Positions 1 to 63,079 of a stretch of DNA of 64,000 nucleotides are shown piece after piece; position 1 is the first letter of the stretch; each line of letters opens with the position of its first letter. The stretch comes from an uncultured virus (IMG/VR IMGVR_UViG_3300036802_000312) (Duplodnaviria > Heunggongvirae > Uroviricota > Caudoviricetes). The stretch lies in IMG/VR virus record IMGVR_UViG_3300036802_000312; one strand, written 5' to 3'. The notes under the pieces were generated by a model, which had not been told where the DNA came from, did no database searches, and saw only the letters and a list, made by a program, of their open reading frames with translations. Made by a program: the position numbers and the translations under genes.

Positions 1-306
1 ATGGAGGTGAAAGACAGTATGAATAACATAAGTGCAGCAAACGCAACGATGAATCATTTCAATATTCAGCCAGTGGGCAGATTTAGCCTACTTATTCAAA
101 CATGCCTTTTACCACAAGCTAATATTGAGTTTAGTAAACATGAGGATCGCAAATCTTATCCGTCAACAGAACAAGTGGCGATTTGGGGAGGGTTATATCC
201 GAAAGTACAAAGGTGTCTTGTAGAAAAAATACCGATATACTCGTTTATCTTGAAGTGGTGTACCCATTTTAGAGAGAAGCGTTATACAAGTAAATTTTCA
301 GTGTAG
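1..306 (+). CDS. hypothetical protein (possibly 5'-partial)
   Basis: ORF track; followed by an intrinsic terminator at 325-355. Confidence 0.35.
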   Translation: MEVKDSMNNISAANATMNHFNIQPVGRFSLLIQTCLLPQANIEFSKHEDRKSYPSTEQVAIWGGLYPKVQRCLVEKIPIYSFILKWCTHFREKRYTSKFSV

Positions 307-324
307 CTAATAGGCTACAAACAA

Positions 325-355
325 GACACCCATCGAAAAGATTGGGTGTTTTTTT
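325..355 (+). terminator. intrinsic terminator
   Basis: GACACCCATC-gaaaa-GATTGGGTGT hairpin followed by a T-run. Confidence 0.7.
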
Positions 356-373
356 ATTGAAATTTTAAAATAT

Positions 374-466
374 GGATAGGTACTCAAGTGGTTAAGAGAA
401 TCCCCTGCTAAGGGATTAGGCGATCTAAACAATCGTGCGAGGGTTCAAATCCCTCTCTATCCTCCA
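374..466 (+). tRNA. trnS: tRNA-Ser(GCT)
   Basis: loop ctGCTaa, long variable arm, CCA. Confidence 0.92.
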
Positions 467-471
467 TATAT

Positions 472-546
472 GGGCAAGTAGCCAAGAGGTGAAGGCTGTT
501 GACTGCAAATCTTCGAGCGGTGGTTCGATTCCACTCTTGCCCTCCA
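472..546 (+). tRNA. trnC: tRNA-Cys(GCA), weak anticodon stem
   Basis: gttga ctGCAaa tcttc; CCA. Confidence 0.85.
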
Positions 547-566
547 ATAAAAAAATGAAAGAATAT

Positions 567-643
567 GCGGTTATGATGGAATTGGCAGACATCCTTGCCT
601 AAGAAGCAAGGTTTTGAGGGTTCGAGTCCCTCTATCCGCACCA
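567..643 (+). tRNA. trnL: tRNA-Leu(AAG), short variable loop
   Basis: cttgc ctAAGaa gcaag; Leu-type D-arm GGAATTGGCAGAC; 5-nt variable region. Confidence 0.85.
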
Positions 644-649
644 TAATTA

Positions 650-724
650 AGGGATGTAGTTCAGTGGAAGAACACTTGTTTTGGGAACAAGATGTCGTAA
701 GTTCGATTCTTACCATTCCTACCA
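650..724 (+). tRNA. trnP: tRNA-Pro(TGG)
   Basis: cttgt ttTGGga acaag; CCA. Confidence 0.88.
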
Positions 725-735
725 AATTAAATTAT

Positions 736-809
736 AGAGGTATCGTTCAACGGTAGGACTGCGGCTTCCAACCCCGCCAATCAGGGTTCAACTCCTTGTG
801 CCTCTGCCA
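736..809 (+). tRNA. trnW: tRNA-Trp(CCA)
   Basis: gcggc ttCCAac cccgc; G73, CCA. Confidence 0.85.
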
Positions 810-816
810 ATTATAT

Positions 817-896
817 GCTCCCTTATTGCTCAGTCAGGTTAGAGCACACGTCTTATATGCGTGGGGTCGTTGGTTCAAATCCAACAGGGAGTACCA
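817..896 (+). tRNA. trnI: tRNA-Ile(TAT)
   Basis: cacgt ctTATat gcgtg; CCA. Confidence 0.85.
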
Positions 897-900
897 ATAT

Positions 901-974
901 AGGGGATTCGTTTAGTGGTAGGACATAACACTTTGACTGTTATTGCGTAGGTTCGATTCCTGCATCCCCCGCCA
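901..974 (+). tRNA. trnQ: tRNA-Gln(TTG)
   Basis: taaca ctTTGac tgtta; CCA. Confidence 0.9.
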
Positions 975-978
975 AAAT

Positions 979-1054
979 GGTTTTGTAGCTCAATCGGGAG
1001 AGCGTTGCACTGTCACTGCAAAGGTAGCGAGATCGAAACTCGTCAAGACCGCCA
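979..1054 (+). tRNA. trnD: tRNA-Asp(GTC)
   Basis: ttgca ctGTCac tgcaa; T-loop ATCGAAA. Confidence 0.88.
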
Positions 1055-1060
1055 TTATAT

Positions 1061-1136
1061 GGATCTTTAGCTCAGTTGGAAGAGCGTTTGGCTCATAACC
1101 GAATGGTCACAGGTTCGATTCCTGTAGGATCCACCA
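1061..1136 (+). tRNA. tRNA(CAT), Ile2-like or elongator Met
   Basis: tttgg ctCATaa ccgaa; body resembles Bacillus tRNA-Ile2 (GGAYCTTTAGCTCAG...). Confidence 0.85.
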
Positions 1137-1145
1137 AAAAATTAT

Positions 1146-1221
1146 TGACGTGTAGCTCAGTGGTAGTAGCAACCGCCTGTTAAGCGGAGAGTCGTAGGTT
1201 CGATCCCTACCATGTCAGCCA
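1146..1221 (+). tRNA. trnN: tRNA-Asn(GTT)
   Basis: loop ctGTTaa; CCA. Confidence 0.9.
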
Positions 1222-1224
1222 TAT

Positions 1225-1311
1225 GGGAAAGCGGCGAAGTTGGAGAGTCGTGGCAGACTGTAAATCTGCTGTCGAAAGGCTGAGTGAGTTCGAATCTCAC
1301 CTTTCCCACCA
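1225..1311 (+). tRNA. trnY: tRNA-Tyr(GTA)
   Basis: gcaga ctGTAaa tctgc; long variable arm. Confidence 0.92.
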
Positions 1312-1345
1312 AAATAAAATTATACAAAGAAAGGAAGTGTTCTTC

Positions 1346-1390
1346 ATGCGAGAGAGTGATGAGGTAGAGGAAGAAATGATGAAAACATAA
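1346..1390 (+). CDS. Glu-rich mini-ORF MRESDEVEEEMMKT preceding tRNA-Glu
   Basis: SD AAAGGAAGTG; ATG..TAA; 5/14 Glu. Confidence 0.65.
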   Translation: MRESDEVEEEMMKT

Positions 1391-1393
1391 TGT

Positions 1394-1470
1394 GGCTCCG
1401 TTGACAAACTGGTTAAGTCACCAGACTTTCAATCTGGTCATTGCGGGTTCGAATCCCGTCGGAGTCACCA
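1394..1470 (+). tRNA. trnE: tRNA-Glu(TTC)
   Basis: ccaga ctTTCaa tctgg; CCA. Confidence 0.92.
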
Positions 1471-1520
1471 CAAAAGTAAAATAGATTGAATATTCTGAAT
1501 ATAAAAGGAGAGTGAAGTGC

Positions 1521-1568
1521 GTGAAAAGTGACAAATCAGACAAATCAATAAAATATATGTCTTCGTAG
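1521..1568 (+). CDS. Lys-rich mini-ORF MKSDKSDKSIKYMSS overlapping tRNA-Lys
   Basis: SD AAAGGAGAGTGA; GTG start; stop TAG = tRNA nt 8-10. Confidence 0.7.
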   Translation: MKSDKSDKSIKYMSS

Positions 1569-1634
1569 CTCAATTGGTAGAGCAAGGAACTTTTAATTCC
1601 GAGGTTGCAGGTTCAAGTCCTGTCGGAGACACCA
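1559..1634 (+). tRNA. trnK: tRNA-Lys(TTT)
   Basis: aggaa ctTTTaa ttccg; CCA. Confidence 0.92.
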
Positions 1635-1640
1635 ATGTAT

Positions 1641-1714
1641 GCGGATGTAATTTAAAGGTAGAATGCTTGTTTTCCAAACAAGTCATGAGGGTTCGATTCC
1701 CTTCGTCCGCTCCA
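1641..1714 (+). tRNA. trnG: tRNA-Gly(TCC)
   Basis: cttgt ttTCCaa acaag; U73, CCA. Confidence 0.9.
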
Positions 1715-1721
1715 AAAATAT

Positions 1722-1790
1722 CGCTGTGACAGGTGTGCGTTAGGCTTCATAAGCCCGATTGCGAGGGTTCAAGCCCCTCCACTGCAACCA
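1722..1790 (+). tRNA. D-arm-reduced tRNA-like RNA with CAT anticodon
   Basis: acceptor, anticodon (ttCATaa) and T arms plus ACCA present; D-arm replaced by ACAGGTGTGCGT. Confidence 0.6.
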
Positions 1791-1793
1791 TTT

Positions 1794-1869
1794 CGGCTCG
1801 TAGCTCAGTTGGTAGAGCTTCGGTGTGAAGTACCGAGAGTCGGGGGTTCAAATCCCTCCGAGCCGACCA
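1794..1869 (+). tRNA. trnF: tRNA-Phe(GAA), atypical loop
   Basis: tcggt gtGAAgt accga; CCA. Confidence 0.88.
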
Positions 1870-1906
1870 TAATTTCTACAGTTAAAATGAAAGAGGTGAA
1901 ATAAAC

Positions 1907-1966
1907 ATGCGACAGAGAGTTCGACAGCGTTACATAGTGAACTATATTAATACTATTCTCCTATAG
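1907..1966 (+). CDS. Gln/Arg mini-ORF MRQRVRQRYIVNYINTILL overlapping tRNA-Gln
   Basis: SD AAAGAGGTGA; stop TAG = tRNA nt 8-10. Confidence 0.6.
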   Translation: MRQRVRQRYIVNYINTILL

Positions 1967-2030
1967 CATATTGGTAATGCACCTGGCTTTGAACCAGGGG
2001 AACACAGTTCGATTCTGTGTGGGAGTGCCA
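1957..2030 (+). tRNA. trnQ: tRNA-Gln(TTG)
   Basis: cctgg ctTTGaa ccagg; CCA. Confidence 0.9.
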
Positions 2031-2043
2031 AATTAACATTTAT

Positions 2044-2119
2044 GCGTCTTTAACTCAGTGGACAGAGTGCTTGGTTTCGACCCAAGTTGTCGGGAGTTCA
2101 AATCTCTCAAGGCGCTCCA
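2044..2119 (+). tRNA. trnR: tRNA-Arg(TCG)
   Basis: cttgg ttTCGac ccaag; CCA. Confidence 0.88.
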
Positions 2120-2123
2120 TTAT

Positions 2124-2201
2124 CTGGATTTAGCTCAGCTTGGTTAGAGTACGTGCCTTGGACGCACGGGGTCGTTGGTTCAAATCCAACAGTCCAGACC
2201 A
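2124..2201 (+). tRNA. trnP: tRNA-Pro(TGG)
   Basis: cgtgc ctTGGac gcacg. Confidence 0.9.
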
Positions 2202-2206
2202 AATAT

Positions 2207-2283
2207 GCTGAATTAGCTCAGTAGGTTAGAGTATCCCTCTGATAAGGGGAAGGTCGATGGTTCGAGTCCATCATTCAGTACCA
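2207..2283 (+). tRNA. trnI: tRNA-Ile(GAT)
   Basis: tccct ctGATaa gggga. Confidence 0.9.
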
Positions 2284-2288
2284 AATAT

Positions 2289-2366
2289 TGCGGAGTGGTA
2301 GCAGTCTGGTAGCTCGCTTGGCTCATAACCAAGAGGTCAAGGGTTCAAATCCCTTCTCCGCAACCA
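2289..2366 (+). tRNA. trnM: tRNA-fMet-like (CAT)
   Basis: initiator-type D-arm (GCAGTCTGGTAGCTCG), ctCATaa, ends CCGCAACCA. Confidence 0.85.
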
Positions 2367-2367
2367 T

Positions 2368-2443
2368 GGGATCGTAGCTCAATTGGTAGAGCAGCGGCTT
2401 TGCAAGTCGAAGGTTGGAGGTTCAAGTCCTCTCGGTTCCACCA
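2368..2443 (+). tRNA. trnA: tRNA-Ala(TGC)
   Basis: loop ttTGCaa; G3:U70. Confidence 0.9.
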
Positions 2444-2452
2444 AAATAATAT

Positions 2453-2528
2453 TGGCGTGTAGAACAACTGGTAGTTCAGCTCACTGTTAATGAGAAGGTT
2501 GTAGGTTCGAATCCTATCATGCCAGCCA
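2453..2528 (+). tRNA. trnN: tRNA-Asn(GTT)
   Basis: ctca ctGTTaa tgag. Confidence 0.88.
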
Positions 2529-2532
2529 ATAT

Positions 2533-2608
2533 GGTTCTGTAGCTCAATCGGGAGAGTGCTTGCTTGTCACGCAAGAGGTAGCGAGATCAAAACTCGTCAG
2601 AACCGCCA
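2533..2608 (+). tRNA. trnD: tRNA-Asp(GTC)
   Basis: cttgc ttGTCac gcaag. Confidence 0.88.
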
Positions 2609-2617
2609 AAAATATAT

Positions 2618-2704
2618 GGGGAAACGGCGAAGTAGGAGAGTCGTGGCAGACTGTAAATCTGTTGCCTTTGTGCTCAGTGAGTTCGAATCTCACTTTCCCC
2701 ACCA
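2618..2704 (+). tRNA. trnY: tRNA-Tyr(GTA)
   Basis: gcaga ctGTAaa tctgt; long variable arm. Confidence 0.92.
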
Positions 2705-2733
2705 ACTCAAATACTGAAAGGATGGTGATCTCT

Positions 2734-2778
2734 ATGACAGAGGTTGGCGAGGAAAGATTTAAAGAAACATTTGATTAA
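2734..2778 (+). CDS. Glu-rich mini-ORF MTEVGEERFKETFD preceding tRNA-Glu
   Basis: SD AAAGGATGGTGA; 4/14 Glu; same length and spacing as 1346-1390. Confidence 0.65.
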   Translation: MTEVGEERFKETFD

Positions 2779-2781
2779 CAT

Positions 2782-2856
2782 GGCGTGGTGGTGAAATTGG
2801 AATAACACACCGCACTTTCACTGCGGGATTTGCGAGTTCGAGCCTCGTCCACGTCA
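2782..2856 (+). tRNA. trnE: tRNA-Glu(TTC), no encoded CCA
   Basis: ccgca ctTTCac tgcgg. Confidence 0.85.
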
Positions 2857-2865
2857 TAACATTTT

Positions 2866-2941
2866 GCTCGGTTAGCTCAAATGGTAGAGCAACGGTATCG
2901 TAAACCGTAGGCTATGGGTTCAAGTCCCTTATCGAGCACCA
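2866..2941 (+). tRNA. trnT: tRNA-Thr(CGT)
   Basis: acggt atCGTaa accgt. Confidence 0.88.
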
Positions 2942-2971
2942 TTATTTAATTAGAGAAGAGAGGGTGATGAA

Positions 2972-3019
2972 ATGAAGAGTGACAAAGGAAATAAATCAGA
3001 TAAACGTAAGTCCTCGTAG
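2972..3019 (+). CDS. Lys-rich mini-ORF MKSDKGNKSDKRKSS overlapping tRNA-Lys
   Basis: SD GAGAGGGTGA; stop TAG = tRNA nt 8-10. Confidence 0.7.
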   Translation: MKSDKGNKSDKRKSS

Positions 3020-3085
3020 CTCAATTGGTAGAGCAAGCGGCTTTTAACCGAGAGGTTACAGGTTCAAATCCTGTCGGGGACACCA
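3010..3085 (+). tRNA. trnK: tRNA-Lys(TTT)
   Basis: agcgg ctTTTaa ccgag; CCA. Confidence 0.88.
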
Positions 3086-3091
3086 ATTTAT

Positions 3092-3165
3092 GCGGATGTA
3101 GTTTAAAGGTAGAATGCCAGCTTGCCAAGTTGGTTGTGAGGGTTCGATTCCCTTCATCCGCTCCA
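3092..3165 (+). tRNA. trnG: tRNA-Gly(GCC)
   Basis: ccagc ttGCCaa gttgg. Confidence 0.9.
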
Positions 3166-3204
3166 AAAATACTTAAATTAACGAATGAAAGAGGTGAGGG
3201 TAAG

Positions 3205-3255
3205 ATGCCACAGCAAGGAGAACAGAAAATCTCAGTTTTAATTGATCTCCCGTAG
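3205..3255 (+). CDS. Gln-rich mini-ORF MPQQGEQKISVLIDLP overlapping tRNA-Gln
   Basis: SD AAAGAGGTGA; stop TAG = tRNA nt 8-10. Confidence 0.65.
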   Translation: MPQQGEQKISVLIDLP

Positions 3256-3319
3256 CATATTGGTAATGCACCTGGCTTTGAACCAGGTAAACACAGTTCA
3301 ATTCTGTGCGGGAGTGCCA
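3246..3319 (+). tRNA. trnQ: tRNA-Gln(TTG)
   Basis: cctgg ctTTGaa ccagg. Confidence 0.9.
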
Positions 3320-3338
3320 CAAAAATAGTTTTAATTAT

Positions 3339-3415
3339 CTGGACTTAGCTCAGTTTGGTAGAGTACATGCTTTGGACGCATGGGGTCGTTGGTTCAAATC
3401 CAGCAGTTCAGACCA
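3339..3415 (+). tRNA. trnP: tRNA-Pro(TGG)
   Basis: catgc ttTGGac gcatg. Confidence 0.9.
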
Positions 3416-3420
3416 TACAT

Positions 3421-3499
3421 GCCTGTATGGTGGAATGGCAGACACGATTGGTTTAGAGCCAGTTGCTTCGGCGTGGGGGTTCAAGTCCCTCTACAGGCA
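3421..3499 (+). tRNA. trnL: tRNA-Leu(TAG), no encoded CCA
   Basis: attgg ttTAGag ccagt; variable arm. Confidence 0.88.
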
Positions 3500-3509
3500 C
3501 TTAAAATAT

Positions 3510-3586
3510 GCTGTTATAGCTCAGTTGGTTAGAGTACCCGTCTGATAAGCGGGAGGTCAGTGGTTCAAATCCATTTAACAGCACCA
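3510..3586 (+). tRNA. trnI: tRNA-Ile(GAT)
   Basis: cccgt ctGATaa gcggg. Confidence 0.9.
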
Positions 3587-3592
3587 AAGTAT

Positions 3593-3668
3593 TGACATGT
3601 AGCTCAGCGGTAGTAGCATCCGACTGTTAATCGGAGAGTCGTAGGTTCGATCCCTACCATGTCAGCCA
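3593..3668 (+). tRNA. trnN: tRNA-Asn(GTT)
   Basis: tccga ctGTTaa tcgga. Confidence 0.9.
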
Positions 3669-3672
3669 ATAT

Positions 3673-3746
3673 GGGGAAATAGTTTAATGGTAGAACAGTG
3701 GCTTCCAAACCCGCTGGTGTGGGTTCGATTCCTGCTTTCCCTGCCA
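3673..3746 (+). tRNA. trnW: tRNA-Trp(CCA)
   Basis: gtggc ttCCAaa cccgc. Confidence 0.85.
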
Positions 3747-3757
3747 AAATGAAATAT

Positions 3758-3833
3758 GGTGTCGGTAGCTCAATGGTTAGAGTGCTGGACTGTGAATCCA
3801 GCGATGCGAGTTCGATCCTCGTCCTTCACCCCA
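3758..3833 (+). tRNA. trnH: tRNA-His(GTG)
   Basis: ctgga ctGTGaa tccag; G-1, C73. Confidence 0.88.
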
Positions 3834-3838
3834 AATAT

Positions 3839-3914
3839 GGTTCTGTAGCTCAATCGGGAGAGTGCTTGCTTGTCACGCAAGAGGTAGCGAGATCGAAACT
3901 CGTCAGAACCGCCA
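3839..3914 (+). tRNA. trnD: tRNA-Asp(GTC)
   Basis: near-identical to 2533-2608. Confidence 0.88.
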
Positions 3915-3922
3915 AAAGATAT

Positions 3923-3995
3923 GGGTTCGTAGCTCAATTGGAAGAGCAACTGCTTTGCAAGTAGAAGGTCGGAGGTTCGAATCCTTCTAAACCAG
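3923..3995 (+). pseudogene. tRNA-Ala(TGC) with degenerate 3' acceptor strand
   Basis: D, anticodon and T arms intact; 3' strand (taaacca) does not pair with GGGTTCG. Confidence 0.6.
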
Positions 3996-4030
3996 TCAAT
4001 TGAAATCAGAGAGGATGATTCAAATGAAAT

Positions 4031-4387
4031 ATGGGATTTGTCGTTGAAGGATTAAATGACGAGAAACATCTAAAAGAAGTGATGCCTGATGCCCATTGTG
4101 TTGTTACAAACGGAACGAGAATGAATGGACGAGTGCAAATGGATATTAATCATGCATTATCTCTCTGTGATGAAGTTTATTTACTCACTGATCCCGATGA
4201 AGCAGGAGATACTTTAGCGAAAATGGTTTGGCGGTTGTATCCTTCTTTACCAAGAGTTTTGTTGGATCGATATGAATGCACAACTTATCGGAATTTAAAA
4301 CTGAAGGTGGGTGTGGAACATTGCGAATTGGAGTACTTGAGACATGTTTTGTTTGAATATTTGAACAATCTTGATTTGTCTCTGTAG
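4031..4387 (+). CDS. Toprim-domain protein, RNase M5/YusF-like
   Basis: VVEG..D, TNG, LLTDPDEAG (DxD) and GVEH motifs of the RNase M5 family. Confidence 0.8.
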   Translation: MGFVVEGLNDEKHLKEVMPDAHCVVTNGTRMNGRVQMDINHALSLCDEVYLLTDPDEAGDTLAKMVWRLYPSLPRVLLDRYECTTYRNLKLKVGVEHCELEYLRHVLFEYLNNLDLSL

Positions 4388-4636
4388 TTTATCGGGGTAA
4401 CAGTATTTTTAGATCTTGAAGGTTCAAAAGCCTTCTACGTCATTAATTTAAATAATGGCGTAACAAAAAAAAGAAGCTCCACCCCGCCAAGAGTTAAGCT
4501 GCTTCACGTTCTTCGTTCTTATTATACGCTTTTACAGATAGCGTTGCAATGTGGGGACAAATAAGAAATTTAGCGGTTTAAGAAGATTGGAATTAGTTCT
4601 TATTTTTAGATGATCTTAAAACATGAAAGTTTATAT

Positions 4637-4718
4637 GCGGGTATGGTGGAATGGCAGACACGGTGGATTTAAGACCCACTGCGAGAGCGTACAGGTTCAA
4701 GTCCTGTTACCCGTACCA
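4637..4718 (+). tRNA. trnL: tRNA-Leu(TAA)
   Basis: gtgga ttTAAga cccac. Confidence 0.88.
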
Positions 4719-4723
4719 AATAT

Positions 4724-4805
4724 GCGGATGTGGTGGAATGGCAGACACGGTAGATTCAAAACCTACTGCTTTGGCATGAGAGTTCAAGTCTCTCCATCTG
4801 CACCA
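4724..4805 (+). tRNA. trnL: tRNA-Leu(CAA)
   Basis: gtaga ttCAAaa cctac. Confidence 0.88.
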
Positions 4806-4813
4806 AAATATAT

Positions 4814-4889
4814 GCTTGTTTAGTTCAGTCGGTAGAATAGCTGTTTTGTAATCAGAAGGTCGGGGGTTCGATTCCCTCAACAAGCACCA
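4814..4889 (+). tRNA. trnT: tRNA-Thr(TGT)
   Basis: loop ttTGTaa; CCA. Confidence 0.85.
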
Positions 4890-4895
4890 TACTAT

Positions 4896-4968
4896 GCTGG
4901 TTTAGTTCAGTTGGGAGAATGTCTGTTTTGTAATCAGAAGGTCGGGGGTTCGAGTCCCTCAACCAGCA
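4896..4968 (+). tRNA. trnT: tRNA-Thr(TGT), no encoded CCA
   Basis: tandem paralog of the previous gene. Confidence 0.85.
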
Positions 4969-4999
4969 TCATCAAACAAAATGAAAGGAAGTGATTAGT

Positions 5000-5047
5000 G
5001 TGAAGAGTGACAAAGATGGCAAGTCCAATAAACATTTGGGTGTGTAG
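5000..5047 (+). CDS. Lys-rich mini-ORF MKSDKDGKSNKHLGV overlapping tRNA-Lys
   Basis: SD AAAGGAAGTGA; GTG start; stop TAG = tRNA nt 8-10. Confidence 0.7.
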   Translation: MKSDKDGKSNKHLGV

Positions 5048-5113
5048 CTCAATCGGTAGAGCAACGGTCTTTTAAACCGTAGGTAGTGGGATCGTAACCC
5101 ACCGCACCCACCA
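5038..5113 (+). tRNA. trnK: tRNA-Lys(TTT)
   Basis: acggt ctTTTaa accgt; T-loop ATCGTAA. Confidence 0.88.
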
Positions 5114-5125
5114 TATATATAATTT

Positions 5126-5202
5126 GCTCGCTTAGCTCAGTAGAGGAGAGCGTTCGGTTTACACCCGAAAGGTCATGGGTTCGAGTCCCTTAGCGAGTAC
5201 CA
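5126..5202 (+). tRNA. trnV: tRNA-Val(TAC)
   Basis: ttcgg ttTACac ccgaa. Confidence 0.9.
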
Positions 5203-5205
5203 TAT

Positions 5206-5280
5206 GCGGATATGGTATAAAGGTAGTGCCGTAGCCTTCCAAGCTATAGAAGACGGGTTCGAGTCCCGCTATCCGCTCCA
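5206..5280 (+). tRNA. trnG: tRNA-Gly(TCC)
   Basis: gtagc ctTCCaa gctat. Confidence 0.9.
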
Positions 5281-5300
5281 ATAATATTAACACTCACTAT

Positions 5301-5431
5301 GCGGAAATCGTCTAAAGGTAGGACACCCCCCTCCAGGGGCGTGAATGTGTGGTTCGCTACCACCAGGATGAGTAGCCCTCATCTGCACGATAGTCAATGA
5401 GATCGAGGTTCGATTCCTTGTTTCCGCTCCA
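5301..5431 (+). ncRNA. 131-nt tRNA-Gly-like RNA with a large inserted multi-hairpin domain
   Basis: GCGGAAA/TTTCCGC-TCCA acceptor, D and T arms, about 60-nt structured insert. Confidence 0.6.
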
Positions 5432-5436
5432 ATTAT

Positions 5437-5511
5437 TGTCTGAAAGCTTTGATGGTGAAGCTGATCTCAGCGCAAGAGATGAATGTAGTTCAATTCTACA
5501 TCAGACAGCCA
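5437..5511 (+). tRNA. tRNA-like RNA, undetermined identity (loop AGCGCAA, no U33)
   Basis: perfect TGTCTGA/TCAGACA-GCCA acceptor, D and T arms. Confidence 0.6.
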
Positions 5512-5514
5512 TAT

Positions 5515-5590
5515 ATCCTCGTAGCTCAGTCGGAAGAGCATGGAGCTTCTACCTCCAGTGTCAGGGGTTCGAGTCCCTTCGAGGATGCCA
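5515..5590 (+). tRNA. trnR: tRNA-Arg(TCT)
   Basis: tggag ctTCTac ctcca. Confidence 0.9.
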
Positions 5591-5594
5591 ATAC

Positions 5595-5663
5595 AGCGGC
5601 ATAAGGTGTGCGTTTTCTCTCATAAGGAAGATTGTGTAGGTTCAAGTCCTACTGTCGCTACTA
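5595..5663 (+). tRNA. second D-arm-reduced CAT tRNA-like RNA
   Basis: AGCGGCA/TGTCGCT acceptor, TAAGGTGTGCGT connector, ctCATaa. Confidence 0.55.
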
Positions 5664-5696
5664 AATCAAATTTAATGTTTAAGGTGGGTGAGATTG

Positions 5697-6137
5697 ATGA
5701 CTACATTCAAAGTTTACACCGATGCTTCCTCTCGCTATAAAGCGATTGTAGAAGATACAGGAAGTGAAAGGGGGCTGCGAAAAGTCTATCCTTCATCCAT
5801 CGGAGCAGTTATAAAAAATGGTGAACAAGTGATTGGATCAATATCTGAAAAAATAGGTTTTTCAGATTCAAACTATGCTGAATTTTTAGCGATGTACACC
5901 GCTTGTCGATACTTGATTGATCATAAAATTACAAAGGTTGATTTTTATGCTGATTGTCTAAACCTTGTACTGATGATTAATCAAAAAATTATCAGTGGAA
6001 TTCCAGAACTACGGAATCTTTCTTATGCAATCCTTGATTGCTTAAATCAGATCGATAATTATACCGTCACTTGGATCCCACGAAACAGCAACAAAGAAGC
6101 GCATAACATGGCTTCTCAAGCTTTCAAAGTCAGCTAA
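5697..6137 (+). CDS. RNase HI-like protein
   Basis: VYTDAS, SNYAEFLA, YADC, WIPRNSNKEAHNMA motifs. Confidence 0.85.
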   Translation: MTTFKVYTDASSRYKAIVEDTGSERGLRKVYPSSIGAVIKNGEQVIGSISEKIGFSDSNYAEFLAMYTACRYLIDHKITKVDFYADCLNLVLMINQKIISGIPELRNLSYAILDCLNQIDNYTVTWIPRNSNKEAHNMASQAFKVS

Positions 6138-6153
6138 TAACTGACCTTGATTT

Positions 6154-6229
6154 CGGCTCGTAGCTCAGTTGGTAGAGCTTCGGTGTGAAGTACCGAGAGT
6201 CGGGGGTTCAAATCCCTCCGAACCGACCA
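6154..6229 (+). tRNA. trnF: tRNA-Phe(GAA)
   Basis: near-identical to 1794-1869. Confidence 0.88.
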
Positions 6230-6235
6230 TTATAT

Positions 6236-6311
6236 ACTTCATTAGCTCAGAGGACAGAGTGCTTGGCTACGAACCAAGAAGTCGGGAGTTCAAATCTCTC
6301 ATGGAGTGCCA
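6236..6311 (+). tRNA. trnR: tRNA-Arg(ACG)
   Basis: cttgg ctACGaa ccaag. Confidence 0.9.
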
Positions 6312-6318
6312 CAAATAT

Positions 6319-6395
6319 CTGGACTTAGCTCAGTTTGGTAGAGTACATGCCTTGGAAGCATGGGGTCGTTGGTTCAAGTCCAACAGTTCAGACCA
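6319..6395 (+). tRNA. trnP: tRNA-Pro(TGG)
   Basis: catgc ctTGGaa gcatg. Confidence 0.9.
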
Positions 6396-6400
6396 TATAT

Positions 6401-6477
6401 GCTGTTATAGCTCAGTTGGTTAGAGTGCCTGTCTGATAAGCAGGAGGTCAGTGGTTCAAATCCATTTAACAGCACCA
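6401..6477 (+). tRNA. trnI: tRNA-Ile(GAT)
   Basis: cctgt ctGATaa gcagg. Confidence 0.9.
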
Positions 6478-6482
6478 AATAT

Positions 6483-6559
6483 GCTGAATTAGCTTAGTTA
6501 GGTAGAGCATCCCCTTGGTATGGGGAAGGTCGATGGTTCGAATCCATTATTCAGCTCCA
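6483..6559 (+). tRNA. trnT: tRNA-Thr(GGT)
   Basis: tcccc ttGGTat gggga. Confidence 0.88.
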
Positions 6560-6564
6560 ATTAT

Positions 6565-6640
6565 GGGGTCATAGCTCAATTGGTAGAGCGACTGCTTTGC
6601 AAGCGGAAGGTTAAGGGTTCAAGCCCCTTTGATTCCACCA
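6565..6640 (+). tRNA. trnA: tRNA-Ala(TGC)
   Basis: loop ttTGCaa; G3:U70. Confidence 0.9.
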
Positions 6641-6667
6641 TTAAAGAATATGAATGAGGTGTAAGTT

Positions 6668-7552
6668 ATGAACGTGCTGTTTTGTTCTAATCCGCTCAAT
6701 TCCAAACAAGTAGATGAAGAGTATGAGCAAGAATATAATATAGCTCGATTTATGGGAATTAATCCGGCTTTAATTGATATCGAATCATTGTTGGAGGGGG
6801 ATGCAAAATCCGCTATACGATCTGTTCGTAAAAATGAAAATAGTTCACTTGCGATTTATCGTGGATGGATGTTAACGCCACATCATTATCGAGAACTATA
6901 TGAAGCTTTAAAAACCAAAAACATAGCATTAATTAATACACCTGAACAATATATTCATTGTCATTACCTTCCTAACAGCTTTGAACATATTCAATTAAAA
7001 AGTATGGAGACAAAGTGGATGAAGGTAACCGAGATGGATTTACTCCTGAAAGCAATGCTAAAGAGCTTCGGCAATAGTGCCTTGATCGTAAAAGATTACG
7101 TAAAGTCAAGAAAACATGATTGGCATGAAGCTTGTTTTATTCCTACTGCGAGTGATACTGAGCAAGCTGAAAAGGTCATTCGTCGATTTATCGAGTTGCA
7201 AGCAGAAATGCTTGCCGAGGGAATTGTACTTCGTGAATTTGTGGAACTTGAAATCATGGGCTATCACCCTTTAAGTAACATGCCACTTGCAAATGAAAGA
7301 AGATTATTCTTCTTAAATCATCAACTCATAGCTAATTTTGAATATTGGGATGAAATGCTTTACAACAATGACCACTTCCCATTAGAGGAATTTGTTACAT
7401 TAGCCCGAAAAGTGAAAAGTAATTTCTTCACAATGGATGTAGCAAAGAAGAGTAATGGAGAATGGATAATTATGGAGCTTGGTGACGGTCAAGTGTCTGG
7501 ATTGCCCATAAAAGCAGATTTGAAATCATTTTATGAGCAAATTTGTTTATGA
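6668..7552 (+). CDS. ATP-grasp domain protein (R2K/DUF4343-like)
   Basis: YRGWML, IVKDYVKSRKH, ERRLFF, FTMDVA, IMELGDGQVSG; SD GAGGTG. Confidence 0.8.
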   Translation: MNVLFCSNPLNSKQVDEEYEQEYNIARFMGINPALIDIESLLEGDAKSAIRSVRKNENSSLAIYRGWMLTPHHYRELYEALKTKNIALINTPEQYIHCHYLPNSFEHIQLKSMETKWMKVTEMDLLLKAMLKSFGNSALIVKDYVKSRKHDWHEACFIPTASDTEQAEKVIRRFIELQAEMLAEGIVLREFVELEIMGYHPLSNMPLANERRLFFLNHQLIANFEYWDEMLYNNDHFPLEEFVTLARKVKSNFFTMDVAKKSNGEWIIMELGDGQVSGLPIKADLKSFYEQICL

Positions 7553-7675
7553 AAATATTAAGAACTGTTAAGTAATGAAGAAATCGTTCTTGAAGCGATT
7601 TTAAGATCGGTTTCTTCACTTAACCAGTAGCATTTATGGGGTAGTAGCTCACCTCTCGATTTCACTAAAAAATAT

Positions 7676-7775
7676 GTGGAGTATACAACTGGTGTTGTCA
7701 GAGTCGCACTCTGAGTGGGGTTTGATTCCCTTTTATCATGATGACTGGTAGGTTCAATTCCTGCATTCCGCACAA
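7676..7775 (+). ncRNA. tRNA-like RNA with an extra T-loop-like arm
   Basis: GTGGAGT/ATTCCGC acceptor, ACAAC/GTTGT D-arm, CAGAGT/ACTCTG arm, GGGtttgattCCC extra arm, GTAGG ttcaatt CCTGC T-arm. Confidence 0.5.
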
Positions 7776-7783
7776 TAAACTAT

Positions 7784-7871
7784 GGAGTCATGGCTGAATG
7801 GCTAAAGCACCGTCCTGCTAAGACGGCGAAGGGGAAACCCTGTACAGGTTCGAATCCTGTTGACTCCGCCA
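7784..7871 (+). tRNA. trnS: tRNA-Ser(GCT)
   Basis: ccgtc ctGCTaa gacgg; long arm. Confidence 0.92.
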
Positions 7872-7874
7872 TAT

Positions 7875-7962
7875 GGATCGTTGGCAGAGAGGCTTAATGC
7901 ATCATCTTGGAAAGGTGACGAGTGTAACAGCTCCGTAGGTTCAAATCCTACACGATCCGCCA
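7875..7962 (+). tRNA. trnS: tRNA-Ser(GGA)
   Basis: tcatc ttGGAaa ggtga. Confidence 0.92.
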
Positions 7963-8022
7963 AAAACATTTTAGTAATTGTGTACAGTTGCGTCTAAGTG
8001 TAGACGTTTCACAAAAAAATAT

Positions 8023-8100
8023 CTGGATTTAGCTTAGCTTGGTTAGAGTACGTGCCTTGGAAGCACGGAGTCGTTGGTTCGAATCCAACAGTCCAGACCA
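8023..8100 (+). tRNA. trnP: tRNA-Pro(TGG)
   Basis: cgtgc ctTGGaa gcacg. Confidence 0.9.
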
Positions 8101-8104
8101 ATAA

Positions 8105-8194
8105 GGAGAGTTGGCAGAGTCAGGCTTAATGTACCAGTTTCGAAAACTGGAGGGTGTAACAGCTCCAAGGGTTCAAATCCCTTACTCTCCTCCA
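8105..8194 (+). tRNA. trnS: tRNA-Ser(CGA)
   Basis: ccagt ttCGAaa actgg. Confidence 0.92.
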
Positions 8195-8219
8195 CAATAG
8201 ATTTTGTATAATTATATAT

Positions 8220-8306
8220 GGAAGGCTACCGAAATGGTTATAACGGCGTTGCTTTGAAAGCTTCTGTGATTTAAAAGTCCTGGGGGTTCGAATCCCCCGC
8301 CTTCCT
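8220..8306 (+). tRNA. trnS: tRNA-Ser(TGA), no encoded CCA
   Basis: gttgc ttTGAaa gcttc (weak stem). Confidence 0.75.
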
Positions 8307-8313
8307 TTTAATA

Positions 8314-8418
8314 TGAGTTTCGGTCTTTATCTAACGTAATGTTAGGGCTTGTTTACTCCTAAAACCTCCTCCTTAGAATCGACCTCCATCCACTATTTAC
8401 GATAATCCGAATGACTCA
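8314..8418 (+). ncRNA. candidate C-rich (anti-SD) sRNA
   Basis: terminal stem TGAGT-TTCGG/CCGAA-tg-ACTCA enclosing ACTCCT, ACCTCCTCCTT, GACCTCC. Confidence 0.35.
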
Positions 8419-9196
8419 AACGTTTGAATATAAAAAAACTAAAAGCAGATCATGGGATTTGCTTTTTTATTGTGAAATTATTTATTTTAGTTTTGCATCC
8501 ATATACATAGAGAAAACAAAAAAAGCCAGCAATATCTCTGACTTTTAGGTGATACTCGTTATTTGATCCAATAACGTATCCAAGTATTATAACTTGTGTC
8601 CACGTTAGGTTTAAGGTTGAACGTTTCTGTCTCTGTAGGACAAGTGTCATGACTATACTCTAAATGTTGATAAGATTTTAGTTCATTATCGGGTATGTTT
8701 TCAAGTGAAAAGCCTTTGAGTCTTGTAGATAATGACATGATAAGACCTCCTTTAAATAGATTAGAAAGTAATTAAATGCTTTCTATATATAATAGATGGA
8801 AGTCTTAAATCTATAATAGAAATCTAAAAATAAGAAACAAGTCAACTTCTATAGTAAGCAACCGACAATTAATGACCTCTTTTAAGACTTGTAATTTTCT
8901 TAGAACAAAAAAACCAACTGTATAGTTGGCTTTTTTCCCTTATACTTATATAATATACTGAATCGATTCGGCAGTCTAAGTTTATAATTAATACATCTAC
9001 GAAAAAATATAAGTTAATGGAAGAATTATCTGTAGGTTAAATTGTAACCTTGTTAGTTATTAGCGGGATTAATTAGTTGAGAAAATTAATGAGAGAATAT
9101 ACTTTTGAATAAATCCAATTTTACATATAATCTAATAGTTTTAAATTAAATGAACAGTCGATTGTATTGATCATCTTATGTAGGCGGGTATATGGG

Positions 9197-12837: not shown

Positions 12838-13110
12838 TGACAATATCAATATTGTATTGAACAGAAATTTGATCCTTGTTCCTGGTTTTTAATTTCGAAT
12901 TATAGTCTTTATTAAATACAACAAGTAAGAGTGGAGAGATTTCAAGTTATCTTTTACTTGTTGTAAAATCAATACTTAATATAGTAAAAGACATTAATCG
13001 ACTGTATATACGAAATAGAATACATGCATGTGATATTTTGGTATACTTGAACCCAAATGAAACTTTATTCAGCAATAAGGGAAAGGCAGGAGATCAATAT
13101 AGGAAAGGGC

Positions 13111-14067
13111 ATGAAGGTTCTTTTAGTAATAGGATTAATCATTTGTCTTGGATTAATATTCACTGGACTTTTGATTGGATATACACATATTAACTGGACG
13201 GTTGTAGATCCTTGGATTTTAAAAGCTTTAGAACTGCATAAAAAAGGAAGCAAAGCATATTACGGATTTTTCTTTGTTAGCATCGTTATTTATATCATAT
13301 ATGCGACTCATTCTTTCCGAAAGGATCCTGAGAAATTTACGGATGACATTTGGAAATTAAGAAAAGTTCTCTATGTACTATTTCTGATCGTAATAAGCAT
13401 TGGGATAGTATTAGGGTATGTTGATTTTCGAGACTGGAAGATCTTGCTTCAGCTCACAGCCATAATCATTTTTGTTGATTTGGCAGTGTTTCAAACACCA
13501 AGTATCACGAAGATATGGAACGCAGAGTTTCAACATCGATCAAAAATAGAGAAGACCATTGAAGTCAATGTTGAATTCATTGCTTCGACAGGAATGAAGC
13601 TTCAGATTTTCTCTGATGCAATTAAGAAAACAGAAGATTATTTTGACCCAATATCTACGATTCCGAATAATTGGAATAGTTATCAGCGTGAGTTGAAACG
13701 TTATCTATCCCTATATACAAGTGAATTTCGTTTTCGATTAGAACTATTTCCGTTTCAACTTGGAGTTGATGAAGCAGAAACGAGACAGCGTATCGATAGA
13801 GCATTTTCACAATTGGAAACGTTGTTTCTTTATGAGGTTGATGATACTCCGGGAAAAGAGAATCAGCCAGGCTTAAGAACTCAAACTCTTAATAGCCTCG
13901 CGAATGGTGTGGGATCTATTATAGAGAAAGACAAACTGATTGTTATTCCAATTTTCTCACAAAGAAACTCCTTAATGGGTATCCGAGCGAATGATGCATC
14001 TCGAATTGATGAGGTTGATATTACAAACATCGTTAATATGGTTCGTATATTTGATTGGTATATGTAA
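13111..14067 (+). CDS. spoIISA: SpoIISA-family membrane toxin
   Basis: TM helices with YATHSF..LRKVLYVLF..FVDLAVF then a cytoplasmic domain ending KLIVIP..IDEVD, matching the B. subtilis SpoIISA layout from memory. Confidence 0.7.
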   Translation: MKVLLVIGLIICLGLIFTGLLIGYTHINWTVVDPWILKALELHKKGSKAYYGFFFVSIVIYIIYATHSFRKDPEKFTDDIWKLRKVLYVLFLIVISIGIVLGYVDFRDWKILLQLTAIIIFVDLAVFQTPSITKIWNAEFQHRSKIEKTIEVNVEFIASTGMKLQIFSDAIKKTEDYFDPISTIPNNWNSYQRELKRYLSLYTSEFRFRLELFPFQLGVDEAETRQRIDRAFSQLETLFLYEVDDTPGKENQPGLRTQTLNSLANGVGSIIEKDKLIVIPIFSQRNSLMGIRANDASRIDEVDITNIVNMVRIFDWYM

Positions 14068-37553: not shown

Positions 37554-38717
37554 TCATTTTATCATTACAATTTGATTGGGTATCGAAAGCGAAACTTGAA
37601 TAATCGTGCCTTTATTTTCCGCTGATTTAATTACTAATTTCCCACCGACTAACGAAAGTCTTTCTTTCATTCCAATCAATCCAAATTTCTGTCCATCATG
37701 AAGCGTGTTTTCTTCATATATAAATCCTTTGCCATTATCTACAATTTCTAAATTAATTTCATTATGTAGTATCTCAATTTTCACTTTAATTTCTGTAGCT
37801 TCGGCATGTTTTTTGATATTGGTCAAAGATTCCTGTACCGTCCGATACAAGGCAATTTCCAGGCTACTCTCTATTCTTTTTTTGTAGGTATCACATATAA
37901 CAAGCGCAATATTTAAACCTGTCTTCTCTTTATATATTTCAATATATTGTTCTACCGCAGGAAGAAATCCTAAATCATCAAGTGCCATGGGTCTTAGATT
38001 ATGGATGATGGAGCGTATTTCAGTAATACTGCTTCGTACAATTTCTTTGAATTCTTTAACCTCTGTTTTAAAGTTGTCCATATTTTTTAGTGCTATTCTT
38101 TCGAGTAACTCTGATCGAATAGCAATGTTAGCCATAGCTTGGGCTGGACCATCATGGATCTCTCTTGATATTCGAAGCCTTTCTTCTTCTTGTGCCTCAA
38201 TAATTTTCTTTCCTAATTGCATCTTATATTCAGCGCTTTTAAATAATTCTCCCACTGACTTCAAATCACCATTTAGAAAGCTATTCACTGTACCAATTTG
38301 TGATGCGGCAGACTCCGCCTTCTTAATCGTTGTTTCAAAATTAATAAGGCGACGAGCAAGTTCATTTCTACGTTCTTGCAATTCATGTTCTCGTTCTTTT
38401 GCAGTAGTCAGCGAATTTTGTAAATCATTTGCATAAGAATATGCCTCTTGTATTCTTGAATCTGTCTTTTCAAACTTCTTACTTGCTTCAATCAATTTCA
38501 ACCTTGCAATCTTAAAATTGATCTCCATCTCGTCTACTTCTTTTATAGCAATAAGAATTCGGCTTTGAATGATTTTTTCATCTTCATATGCCTTTTTATA
38601 CTCATCTATTGCACCGTGCATAATCGATGATATTTCATCTTCCCCTTTTTTCAACGCATTCATTGTTTGTTCTATTGACTTATTTAGCGTATCAAGAGAA
38701 TATCTTTGTTCATTCAT
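37554..38717 (-). CDS. degS: DegS-like soluble sensor histidine kinase (orphan)
   Basis: N-terminal coiled coil; EEERLRISREIHDGPAQ; LRPMALDDLG; DNGKGF; FGLIGMKER. Confidence 0.85.
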   Translation of the reverse strand: MNEQRYSLDTLNKSIEQTMNALKKGEDEISSIMHGAIDEYKKAYEDEKIIQSRILIAIKEVDEMEINFKIARLKLIEASKKFEKTDSRIQEAYSYANDLQNSLTTAKEREHELQERRNELARRLINFETTIKKAESAASQIGTVNSFLNGDLKSVGELFKSAEYKMQLGKKIIEAQEEERLRISREIHDGPAQAMANIAIRSELLERIALKNMDNFKTEVKEFKEIVRSSITEIRSIIHNLRPMALDDLGFLPAVEQYIEIYKEKTGLNIALVICDTYKKRIESSLEIALYRTVQESLTNIKKHAEATEIKVKIEILHNEINLEIVDNGKGFIYEENTLHDGQKFGLIGMKERLSLVGGKLVIKSAENKGTIIQVSLSIPNQIVMIK

Positions 38718-62185: not shown

Positions 62186-63079
62186 TCAAATGGAGTTAGA
62201 CAATAGCTTCCCAACTTCTCGAAACGTGTCAGAAATGGAATCGTTTATAACCATCTGAAAACAACTATCAAGTTTCGTGGATTCTTGGTTTATAAGTACA
62301 CTTTTCTTATAAGACGGGAAAAACATGGGGATTTCATTGATAGGAGCAACCTCAAGGGAAGTACCCAGGACAAGGAATAGATCCGATTGTGATGCACTTC
62401 GCTTTGCCTCTTGAAAATATCGAATGGAATCTTGAAATAAAACTACGTCTGGTTTTAAGATGTGATTGCATCTAACTTCCCGCTTCTTTTTCCCTTTACA
62501 TCGAATAGCTTCTTTTGTAATTCCGCGCAAATCATAACGAGTACCACATTCCGTACAATCAACATAATTGAAGGGGTGATTCGAGATTGGAATATAGTGA
62601 TTACAAACATTCTCTTTGATTTCAATTTTTCGACAAGTCGGAATCTCGTGTTTGCGAATATAGTCCAAATCATAATCTTCGCCACAATTTGTACAATAGG
62701 CAACTTTCATACTGCCATGTACCTCATAGACTTTCGAACTTCCTGCCATCTGATGTAACCCGTCTACATTTTGCGTAAAAATGGTTATGTCTTTGCCTTG
62801 TGATTCAAGGTTGGCTAAAAATTGATGTCCAAAGTTCGGCTCATAATCCCCTGCTAATTTAATTCTGAAAATATTTTTGAATGCAATCCAAAACTTTTCT
62901 TTATGCCGGTTAAAATACGATAAAGACATTATTTGTTGCCTGGACAAATTGTACGTCCAGATACCAGTTAATGACCGAAAATCGGGAATCGATGAATCTG
63001 TGCTTATCCCTGCACCTGTCAATACAGTTATCTTGTTAGCTTCTTGTATCCATTTCGCAAGGAGTTGATGATTGTCCAT
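62186..63079 (-). CDS. Sir2-family NAD-dependent deacylase with extended Zn-binding insert
   Basis: TGAGIS..S.IPDFRS, TQNVDGLH, EVHGS, KPDVVLF, GTSL.V.P. Confidence 0.93.
   Translation of the reverse strand: MDNHQLLAKWIQEANKITVLTGAGISTDSSIPDFRSLTGIWTYNLSRQQIMSLSYFNRHKEKFWIAFKNIFRIKLAGDYEPNFGHQFLANLESQGKDITIFTQNVDGLHQMAGSSKVYEVHGSMKVAYCTNCGEDYDLDYIRKHEIPTCRKIEIKENVCNHYIPISNHPFNYVDCTECGTRYDLRGITKEAIRCKGKKKREVRCNHILKPDVVLFQDSIRYFQEAKRSASQSDLFLVLGTSLEVAPINEIPMFFPSYKKSVLINQESTKLDSCFQMVINDSISDTFREVGKLLSNSI

Follow-up and report, generated by a model that had tools for sequence, protein, structure and literature searches.

Lysine-, glutamate- and glutamine-codon mini-genes directly upstream of their cognate tRNA genes in a plasmid-like tRNA array: candidate sensors of tRNA supply

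Little is known about how the levels of individual transfer RNAs (tRNAs) are set in bacteria and in the mobile elements they carry. Known codon-sensing leaders act on genes for amino-acid metabolism or for synthetases, and not on tRNAs. The question of whether a tRNA could be controlled in this way is raised by a stretch of 64,000 nucleotides from IMG/VR record IMGVR_UViG_3300036802_000312 (the window), in which a giant plasmid-like element of soil Bacillales carries a tRNA array containing short open reading frames (ORFs) rich in lysine, glutamate or glutamine codons, each directly upstream of a tRNA gene for the same amino acid. An earlier note on this DNA had described seven such mini-ORFs, each led by a Shine-Dalgarno (SD) sequence, and had proposed that they act as a translation-sensing switch for production of the tRNA behind them. 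The observation itself is confirmed. Its interpretation as a whole is partly supported by the sequence comparisons presented here, and the Gln part is the weakest.

The array spans positions 374–8306 and comprises 57 tRNA genes, all on the plus strand within approximately 8 kb, as called by ARAGORN and confirmed by Rfam. Eight of the genes are relevant here: three for tRNA-Lys (starting at 1559, 3010, and 5038), two for tRNA-Glu (1394 and 2781), and three for tRNA-Gln (901, 1957, and 3246). A typical spacer in the array is 3–13 nucleotides (nt) long and ends in ..ATAT. Seven spacers of 67–88 nt are devoid of tRNA-like sequence and are found only 5´ of Glu, Lys, and Gln genes; the remaining long spacers are tRNA remnants (e.g., 1715–1793 before the Phe gene) or lie downstream of protein genes. 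All seven mini-ORFs are present, on the plus strand, in front of tRNA genes called by both programs. Glu leader E1 (1346–1390) has the SD sequence AAGGA 10 nt upstream of an ATG and encodes MRESDEVEEEMMKT with five Glu codons; its stop codon ends 3 nt before tRNA-Glu(UUC) at 1394–1470, and it has homologues in three related loci (L004, L025, and L044). The second Glu leader, E2 (2734–2778; MTEVGEERFKETFD), has GAG at codons 3 and 6, and its stop ends 2 nt before tRNA-Glu(UUC) at 2781–2857. Lys leader K1 (1521–1568; MKSDKSDKSIKYMSS) has the SD sequence AAGGAG, a GTG start, and Lys at codons 2, 5, 8, and 11, and is followed by tRNA-Lys(UUU) at 1559–1634. K2 (2972–3019; MKSDKGNKSDKRKSS) starts with ATG in front of tRNA-Lys(UUU) at 3010–3085, and K3 (5000–5047; MKSDKDGKSNKHLGV) with GTG in front of tRNA-Lys(UUU) at 5038–5113. 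Gln leader Q1 (1907–1966; MRQRVRQRYIVNYINTILL) has the SD sequence GAGGT, an ATG start, and CAG at codons 3 and 7, and precedes tRNA-Gln(UUG) at 1957–2030; Q2 (3205–3255; MPQQGEQKISVLIDLP) starts with ATG, has Gln at codons 3, 4, and 7, and precedes tRNA-Gln(UUG) at 3246–3319. All Lys and Gln ORFs of the window overlap the tRNA by 10 nt, such that the stop codon TAG makes up tRNA positions 8–10.

With a leader defined as an SD-led ORF whose end falls between -10 and +30 relative to the tRNA start, the tally of the earlier note (all three Lys, both Glu, and two of three Gln genes, i.e. seven of eight) was reproduced, as was its claim that no other tRNA of the array is preceded by such an ORF (0 of 49). 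The remaining Gln gene, a tRNA-Gln(UUG) at 901–974 (plus strand, ARAGORN call), provides an internal contrast by spacer and comparative leader count: it is leaderless, belongs to a different sequence type, and has a 4-nt spacer. A comparison with shuffled spacers, which the earlier note had suggested for other tRNA arrays, was made for the window. Among 2000 dinucleotide-preserving shuffles per spacer, a leader that equaled or exceeded the real one in cognate codons arose in 0.05–0.65%, and an SD-led ORF of this kind regardless of codons in 2.5–18.6%. These trials are not independent because the seven leaders are paralogues.

The association extends beyond the window. The array harbors a gene for a Toprim (RNase M5-like) protein at 4031–4387, and relatives of this protein with 52–72% identity are encoded on two plasmids, one of 628 kb in Rossellomorea sp. 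AcN35-11 (L003) and one of 510 kb, pSC2, in Paenibacillus polymyxa SC2 (L025), as well as on metagenome contigs. The 360-kb plasmid of P. thiaminolyticus SY20 (L044) was found not through the Toprim protein but by blastn with window positions 1312–1634, which hold the E1 and K1 leaders and their tRNAs. ARAGORN was run on every locus, and in seven sources (the window, L025, L004, L003, L010, L011, and L044) SD-led ORFs abut 22 of 33 Lys/Glu/Gln tRNAs vs. 2 of 171 other tRNAs (Fisher 2.7e-19, a value that ignores shared descent). Both exceptions are spurious, one lying within the Toprim gene and the other within a tRNA remnant. Broken down by identity, leaders precede 10/10 Lys, 10/15 Glu, and 2/8 Gln genes. 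A scan of other arrays, as proposed in the earlier note, found leaders in six related arrays and none in the more distant arrays L005/L006, L009, and L024. Lys leader homologues read MKSDKSDKSIK in P. thiaminolyticus, MKSDKGSKSDKLMSS in L004, and MNSDKSDKPKKQKLNI in Rossellomorea, each followed by its stop codon, and MKPDKCGKHSS... in pSC2, where ORFs of this family start at 4912, 5724, 6550, and 8521. Glu leader homologues read MRESDEVREVNSE in L004 and MQESDEIVLEM in pSC2, both again with the stop codon following, and MRESIEFDEERNK... in P. thiaminolyticus; a second Glu leader type, MEPGEE..., occurs in three elements. The earlier note had named loss of the frame or of the cognate codons in homologous arrays as a refuting result, and the outcome was the opposite: for the Lys and Glu leaders, the six arrays retain the reading frame, start codon, SD, and cognate codons, while the intervening codons are scrambled. 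Gln is represented by two window paralogues only.

Several features of these sequences suggest that they are read codon by codon. The mean SD pairing energy is -11.3 kcal/mol for the 22 leaders; for long ORFs of the window (n = 24) it is -8.4, and for randomly chosen ATG/GTG triplets (n = 400) it is -2.0. In the K leaders, 42 of 126 codons (33%) specify Lys and none Glu; in the E leaders, 38 of 122 (31%) specify Glu, and in the Q leaders 5 of 27 (19%) specify Gln. Cognate triplets are concentrated in the frame of the ORF, with counts (ORF frame first) of 42/10/12 for K, 38/8/12 for E, and 5/1/0 for Q. Among the 10 K leaders, the start codon varies between ATG and GTG only, and the Asp codon between GAC and GAT only. 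At the Lys columns 2, 5, and 8 the first two bases are identical throughout (identity 0.8 at column 11), and the third base has an identity of 0.36–0.80 due to alternation of AAA and AAG; the intervening columns 6, 7, 9, and 10 have identities of 0.2–0.5 at all three bases. In E leaders of the MRES type, GAG is invariant at codons 3 and 6 (7/7). Insertions and deletions comprise whole codons or 9-nt units, and the cognate triplets of the K leaders recur every 9 nt. Recent copying does not account for this conservation, since the downstream tRNAs differ considerably (compensatory changes affect 14 of 20 cloverleaf stem pairs in those that follow K leaders) and the Toprim proteins are only 52–72% identical. 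Leader length varies from 11 to 27 codons, as do the C-termini, which are often set by the tRNA sequence that the ORF enters. The K and E leaders share a layout of X-Ser-Asp-X, where X is the cognate residue, and this resemblance suggests that they may be a single module whose codons were adapted to different tRNAs. The codons for Ser-Asp (AGT GAY) follow the first cognate codon at window positions 1527–1532, 2978–2983, 5006–5011, and 1355–1360, and occupy the same columns in L003, L004, L010, L011, and L044. Taken at the level of sequence, the Lys and Glu leaders are supported as translated, codon-specific elements tied to their cognate tRNA.

If ribosomes read these leaders, the next question is what would convert their progress into an output. 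RNA structures that could do so were looked for, and none was found. An Rfam cmscan of positions 1–9000 at E<=1 returned tRNA-clan and chance matches only, with no leader family and no T-box. The leaders fold with minimum free energies of -0.1 to -13.2 kcal/mol, no stronger than shuffles (z -2.6 to +1.4), and leader-tRNA duplexes are no better than those of shuffled leaders (z -1.6 to +1.8), leaving no antisense arm for the tRNA ends. The RNAalifold consensus comprises the cloverleaf only, without conserved structure outside the tRNA. No leader contains a terminator-like site, and promoter-like sites in the leaders are at shuffle expectation. A transcription attenuator is ruled out, there being no terminator/antiterminator or alternative hairpins and the next gene being the cognate tRNA itself. 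The T-box riboswitch is ruled out by the lack of an Rfam match and of a conserved structure presenting a specifier. Translation attenuation of the ermC/cat type is likewise ruled out, as there is no hairpin and the downstream gene is a tRNA gene without a ribosome-binding site, and hairpin or antisense control of the tRNA ends is ruled out by the leader folding, the duplex z-scores, and the RNAalifold consensus.

The most likely explanation, to which we assign roughly even chances, is that the leaders are translated cis-acting sensors of Lys, Glu, and Gln decoding that set the maturation of the tRNA directly behind them. The mini-genes would be part of a long, co-transcribed tRNA array of a Bacillales megaplasmid-like element, and the position of the ribosome itself, rather than an RNA switch, would be the signal. 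With abundant cognate tRNA, ribosomes would reach the stop codon, where their footprint would cover the 5´ strand of the acceptor stem, and their continual arrival would block folding of the pre-tRNA and cleavage by RNase P. If that tRNA were instead in short supply, cleaved, or poorly modified, the leading ribosome would stall at codon 2–3, approximately 14–44 nt upstream, and bar further initiation, such that the tRNA would be free to fold and be processed. The outcome would be negative feedback, by which the three tRNAs carrying a 2-thiolated wobble U would be supplied as needed. The geometry fits this scheme. Cognate codons begin at codon 2 or 3, and the stop falls between -3 and +23, counted from the tRNA start. 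Toeprinting practice places the edge of the ribosome 16 nt past the first P-site base, and with this assumption a terminating ribosome reaches tRNA positions +8 to +34 in 22/22 leaders, which covers the 5´ acceptor strand completely; while the first cognate codon occupies the A site, the edge lies at -44 to -14. In 15/22 leaders the stop codon ends at or inside the tRNA (+1 or beyond), and RNase P cleavage would therefore leave the leader without an intact stop codon. A more specific version, which we consider somewhat less probable than an even bet, is that precursors of 2-thio-U34 tRNAs are bifunctional, serving both as messenger RNA (mRNA) and as pre-tRNA by carrying a mini-gene of their own codons with its stop on or in the tRNA, so that ribosomes and RNase P would compete for the same nucleotides.

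All three wobble-2-thiouridine tRNAs are singled out by the leaders, and other tRNAs of the array with U at position 34 (e.g., Arg-UCU, Leu-UAA, and Gly-UCC) are leaderless. The earlier note connected this set with xm5s2U34 modification and with the anticodon nucleases PrrC and RloC; such a link is conceivable from the identity of the three tRNAs. No gene for a tRNA nuclease, tRNA repair, or thiolation that would support it was seen in the window, and the search for a tRNA 2-thiolation enzyme near the array gave only a weak match to a PAPS-reductase domain in a protein of 863 amino acids. In the E and Q leaders the sensor codons that do not vary, GAG and CAG, end in G and are read by wobble by these tRNAs, which may make the leaders sensitive to a shortage or to poor modification of the tRNA.

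Other explanations account for parts of the same evidence. The leaders could be untranslated RNA motifs, in the form of periodic AAR/GAR triplets bound by a protein or of a T-box-like pairing to the mature tRNA's anticodon, which would sense the tRNA without ribosomes. The 9-nt spacing of the K cognate triplets recalls some repeat-binding RNA sites, and the AGTGAY segment is conserved at the nucleotide level; however, a strong SD at a fixed distance, a start that alternates between ATG and GTG only, whole-codon or 9-nt indels, and the in-frame excess of cognate triplets (42 vs. 10 and 12 for K) all speak for translation, and with neither an Rfam match (T-box or other) nor a conserved specifier-presenting structure there is very little probability left for this explanation. 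If translation is granted, codon identity could still go unsensed, ribosome loading having a general role in the long array transcript (e.g., to keep genes apart, to order processing, or to protect long spacers) and the cognate codons being a historical accident. Conservation of SD and start, as well as the lack of an RNA switch, is what would be expected in that case. Left unexplained are the codon shares given above, the top conservation of the cognate columns beside drifting neighbors, and the restriction to Lys, Glu, and Gln tRNAs, and we regard such a general role as rather improbable. It is also conceivable that the products are functional micro-peptides, basic (KSDK-type) or acidic (ESDE-type), that are located in the array by chance, as might be suggested by the conserved N-termini M-K-S-D-K and M-R-E-S-D-E, Ser-Asp included. 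Lengths and C-termini that show no constraint and often follow from the tRNA sequence, and scrambled positions between the cognate residues, are at odds with this, and it would take a threefold coincidence for the composition of the peptides to match the tRNAs behind them, making it highly improbable.

The weakest step of the proposed mechanism is its polarity. In Bacillus, SD-type 5´ stabilizers and stalled ribosomes protect RNA from 5´-to-3´ decay, and a ribosome bound to or stalled on the leader could in the same manner protect or promote the tRNA, e.g., by shielding the precursor from such decay; in a variant, the passage of ribosomes would stop the A-rich leader from disturbing tRNA folding. 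The anatomy of the leaders is identical under both polarities, their very strong SDs resemble known stabilizer elements, and a cut upstream in the polycistronic precursor would give a free 5´ end in need of a shield. On the other hand, an output raised by flowing translation would be positive feedback without an obvious use, and the 171 other tRNAs, with spacers of 3–13 nt, do without a stabilizer. There is also no misfold for a passing ribosome to relieve, since pairing between leader and tRNA is no better than for shuffled leaders. We consider this opposite polarity unlikely, though it deserves more weight than the explanations of the preceding paragraph.

Returning to ribosome position as a brake on tRNA maturation, a number of points weigh against it. 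The geometry is partly built in, because the ORFs were selected for ending near a tRNA, and occlusion may only delay maturation, barring a competing decay, because termination takes seconds and RNase P cleavage is irreversible. The Ser-Asp codons are conserved as strongly as the cognate codons, for which sensing offers no explanation. The Gln case consists of two window paralogues holding just 2 and 3 Gln codons, with no homologues in the plasmids or IMG/VR, and in Q1 the 2 Gln codons among 19 are fewer than those for Arg (4). Leaders are dispensable, in that the tRNA-Gln gene at 901 and, over the seven sources, 5/15 Glu and 6/8 Gln genes lack one, and they are absent from the distant arrays. 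All 22 leaders stem from one element family, so the counts are not independent. Finally, translation is inferred only, as no RNA runs containing the stretch are listed.

Comparison with known systems places the sensor on familiar ground. Leader-peptide transcription attenuators comprise trpL, hisL, pheL, thrL, leuL, and pheM of pheST. Like trpL and hisL, the present leaders are short SD-led cis ORFs enriched in codons for one amino acid, where ribosome progress would report on charged tRNA. The earlier note drew this parallel, which stands for the sensor part and fails for the output part: there are no terminators, antiterminators, or alternative hairpins, the downstream gene is the cognate tRNA instead of a biosynthetic or synthetase mRNA, and the ORF ends on or inside that tRNA, such that the output would be RNA folding and processing instead of transcription termination. 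T-boxes are untranslated structured RNAs of approximately 200 nt in Firmicutes that bind uncharged tRNA and control mRNAs. They share with the leaders the bacterial group and the sensing in cis of a specific tRNA by a codon-like leader element, but the latter are SD-led ORFs without structure or Rfam T-box match. In Mycobacterium tuberculosis, depletion of tRNA-Cys by VapC4 is reportedly sensed by small ORFs with Cys codons, leading to control of stress-response mRNAs (work attributed to Barth and coworkers, PNAS, 2021). Cognate-codon small ORFs would in both cases signal tRNA loss through ribosome stalling; here, in contrast, control would act on a gene that replaces the depleted tRNA. What is known is thus the sensor principle, and what is new is the target, the cognate tRNA itself, together with an output without an RNA switch and an ORF that abuts or enters the tRNA. 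The earlier note was aware of no account of such a switch for tRNA genes, and no paper on leader ORFs in front of tRNA genes was found in the full-text literature, with subscription journals outside the scope of the search.

The array as such is of a described type. Long tRNA arrays (L-arrays) are described as spread horizontally in Firmicutes and cyanobacteria (PMC8421152). With tens of tRNA genes on one strand, short spacers, and a horizontally transferred carrier, the 57-gene array on a plasmid-like element of approximately 480 kb fits this description. The idea of a tRNA reserve for times of translational stress is shared. The Anabaena array is reported to be induced as a whole (PMC8421152), in contrast to the leaders described here, where control would be per gene, post-transcriptional, and confined to three tRNA identities. 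The words ‘leader’, ‘small ORF’, and ‘Shine’ do not occur in the main text of that paper (PMC8421152).

The window belongs to a contig of 483,535 bp, its annotated plasmid relatives measure 360–628 kb, and the one sequencing run listed as containing the stretch is a soil-metagenome DNA run, which may be the source sample. A phage origin, as the viral record would imply, is ruled out by the plasmid-like and Bacillales-like gene content and by relatives that are annotated as plasmids. The genes include those for a protein with a SpoIISA-like toxin domain (13057–14067), a DegS-like histidine kinase (37554–38717), a PARP-like protein with WGR and regulatory domains (43005–44321), and Sir2 (62186–63079), as well as SSB and an integrase. 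Searches for close relatives and further leaders gave little. INPHARED megablast with positions 9000–30000 returned no match, and blastn with the array and with K2 plus its tRNA, aimed at close phage relatives, aligned tRNA bodies only and no leader. The array of Bacillus phage vB_BcoS-136 (L001) has no such leaders. IMG/VR contains no relatives of the Toprim protein and no matches to three leader or tRNA patterns; a pattern of SD plus K leader occurred there in 5 stretches, none of them (0/5) before tRNA-Lys. In a sample of 401 genomes of the order of Rossellomorea there were 10 further Toprim matches, 0/10 with tRNAs nearby, and a match on a Priestia megaterium plasmid also had no tRNAs nearby.

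Some further observations concern the array itself. In addition to the Toprim gene, it contains an RVT_3/RNase H-like gene at 5688–6137 and an R2K-clade ATP-grasp gene at 6668–7552. Counterparts of all three are annotated in the pSC2 array, and the P. thiaminolyticus plasmid stretch has the RVT-like and ATP-grasp genes and lacks the Toprim gene; the three may be a conserved companion set of tRNA arrays. The Toprim homologue on the Rossellomorea plasmid (L003 10001–10322) has one in-frame TGA and is assembled by blast from two pieces, and may be a pseudogene or reflect a sequencing error. ARAGORN makes no call in the spacers at 1715–1793, 5301–5428, 5595–5660, and 7675–7772, which contain tRNA-like remnants or odd tRNAs. 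The one before tRNA-Phe retains a T-arm and recurs in L004 at 4422–4502, another has an Rfam tRNA match covering 128 nt, which suggests an insertion, and two more give weak matches that are tRNA- or tRNA-Sec-like. A hairpin followed by a T-run at 326–356 lies directly 5´ of the first tRNA gene (tRNA-Ser, 374), leaving approximately 17 nt for a promoter, and similar hairpins are found 5´ of the arrays in L004, L044, and L003. The array may thus be entered by read-through, permitting control of the array as a whole. Lastly, the tRNA called at 818–896 has the anticodon TAT (Ile), as has one in L004, and in pSC2 (L025 5366–5442) the ARAGORN call is a tRNA-Tyr with anticodon ATA. These unusual anticodons may represent modified-wobble decoding or miscalls.

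In conclusion, a family of plasmid-like elements places mini-genes of cognate codons directly in front of Lys, Glu, and, in the window, Gln tRNA genes. If they act as proposed, they would constitute a direct autoregulatory loop for tRNA supply and the first case of ribosome occupancy gating tRNA processing. The idea is directly testable, because plasmids of two cultured strains, SC2 of P. polymyxa and SY20 of P. thiaminolyticus, carry the same leaders. The tRNA pool would steer its own replenishment without an RNA switch, a protein regulator, or a terminator, and the elements would hold an on-demand reserve of the tRNAs depleted by anticodon nucleases and by failure of thiolation, avoiding at the same time an excess of hypomodified, misreading-prone copies. 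The tRNA arrays of mobile elements would then serve as a reserve against tRNA-cleaving defenses or modification failure rather than as a means of matching codon usage.

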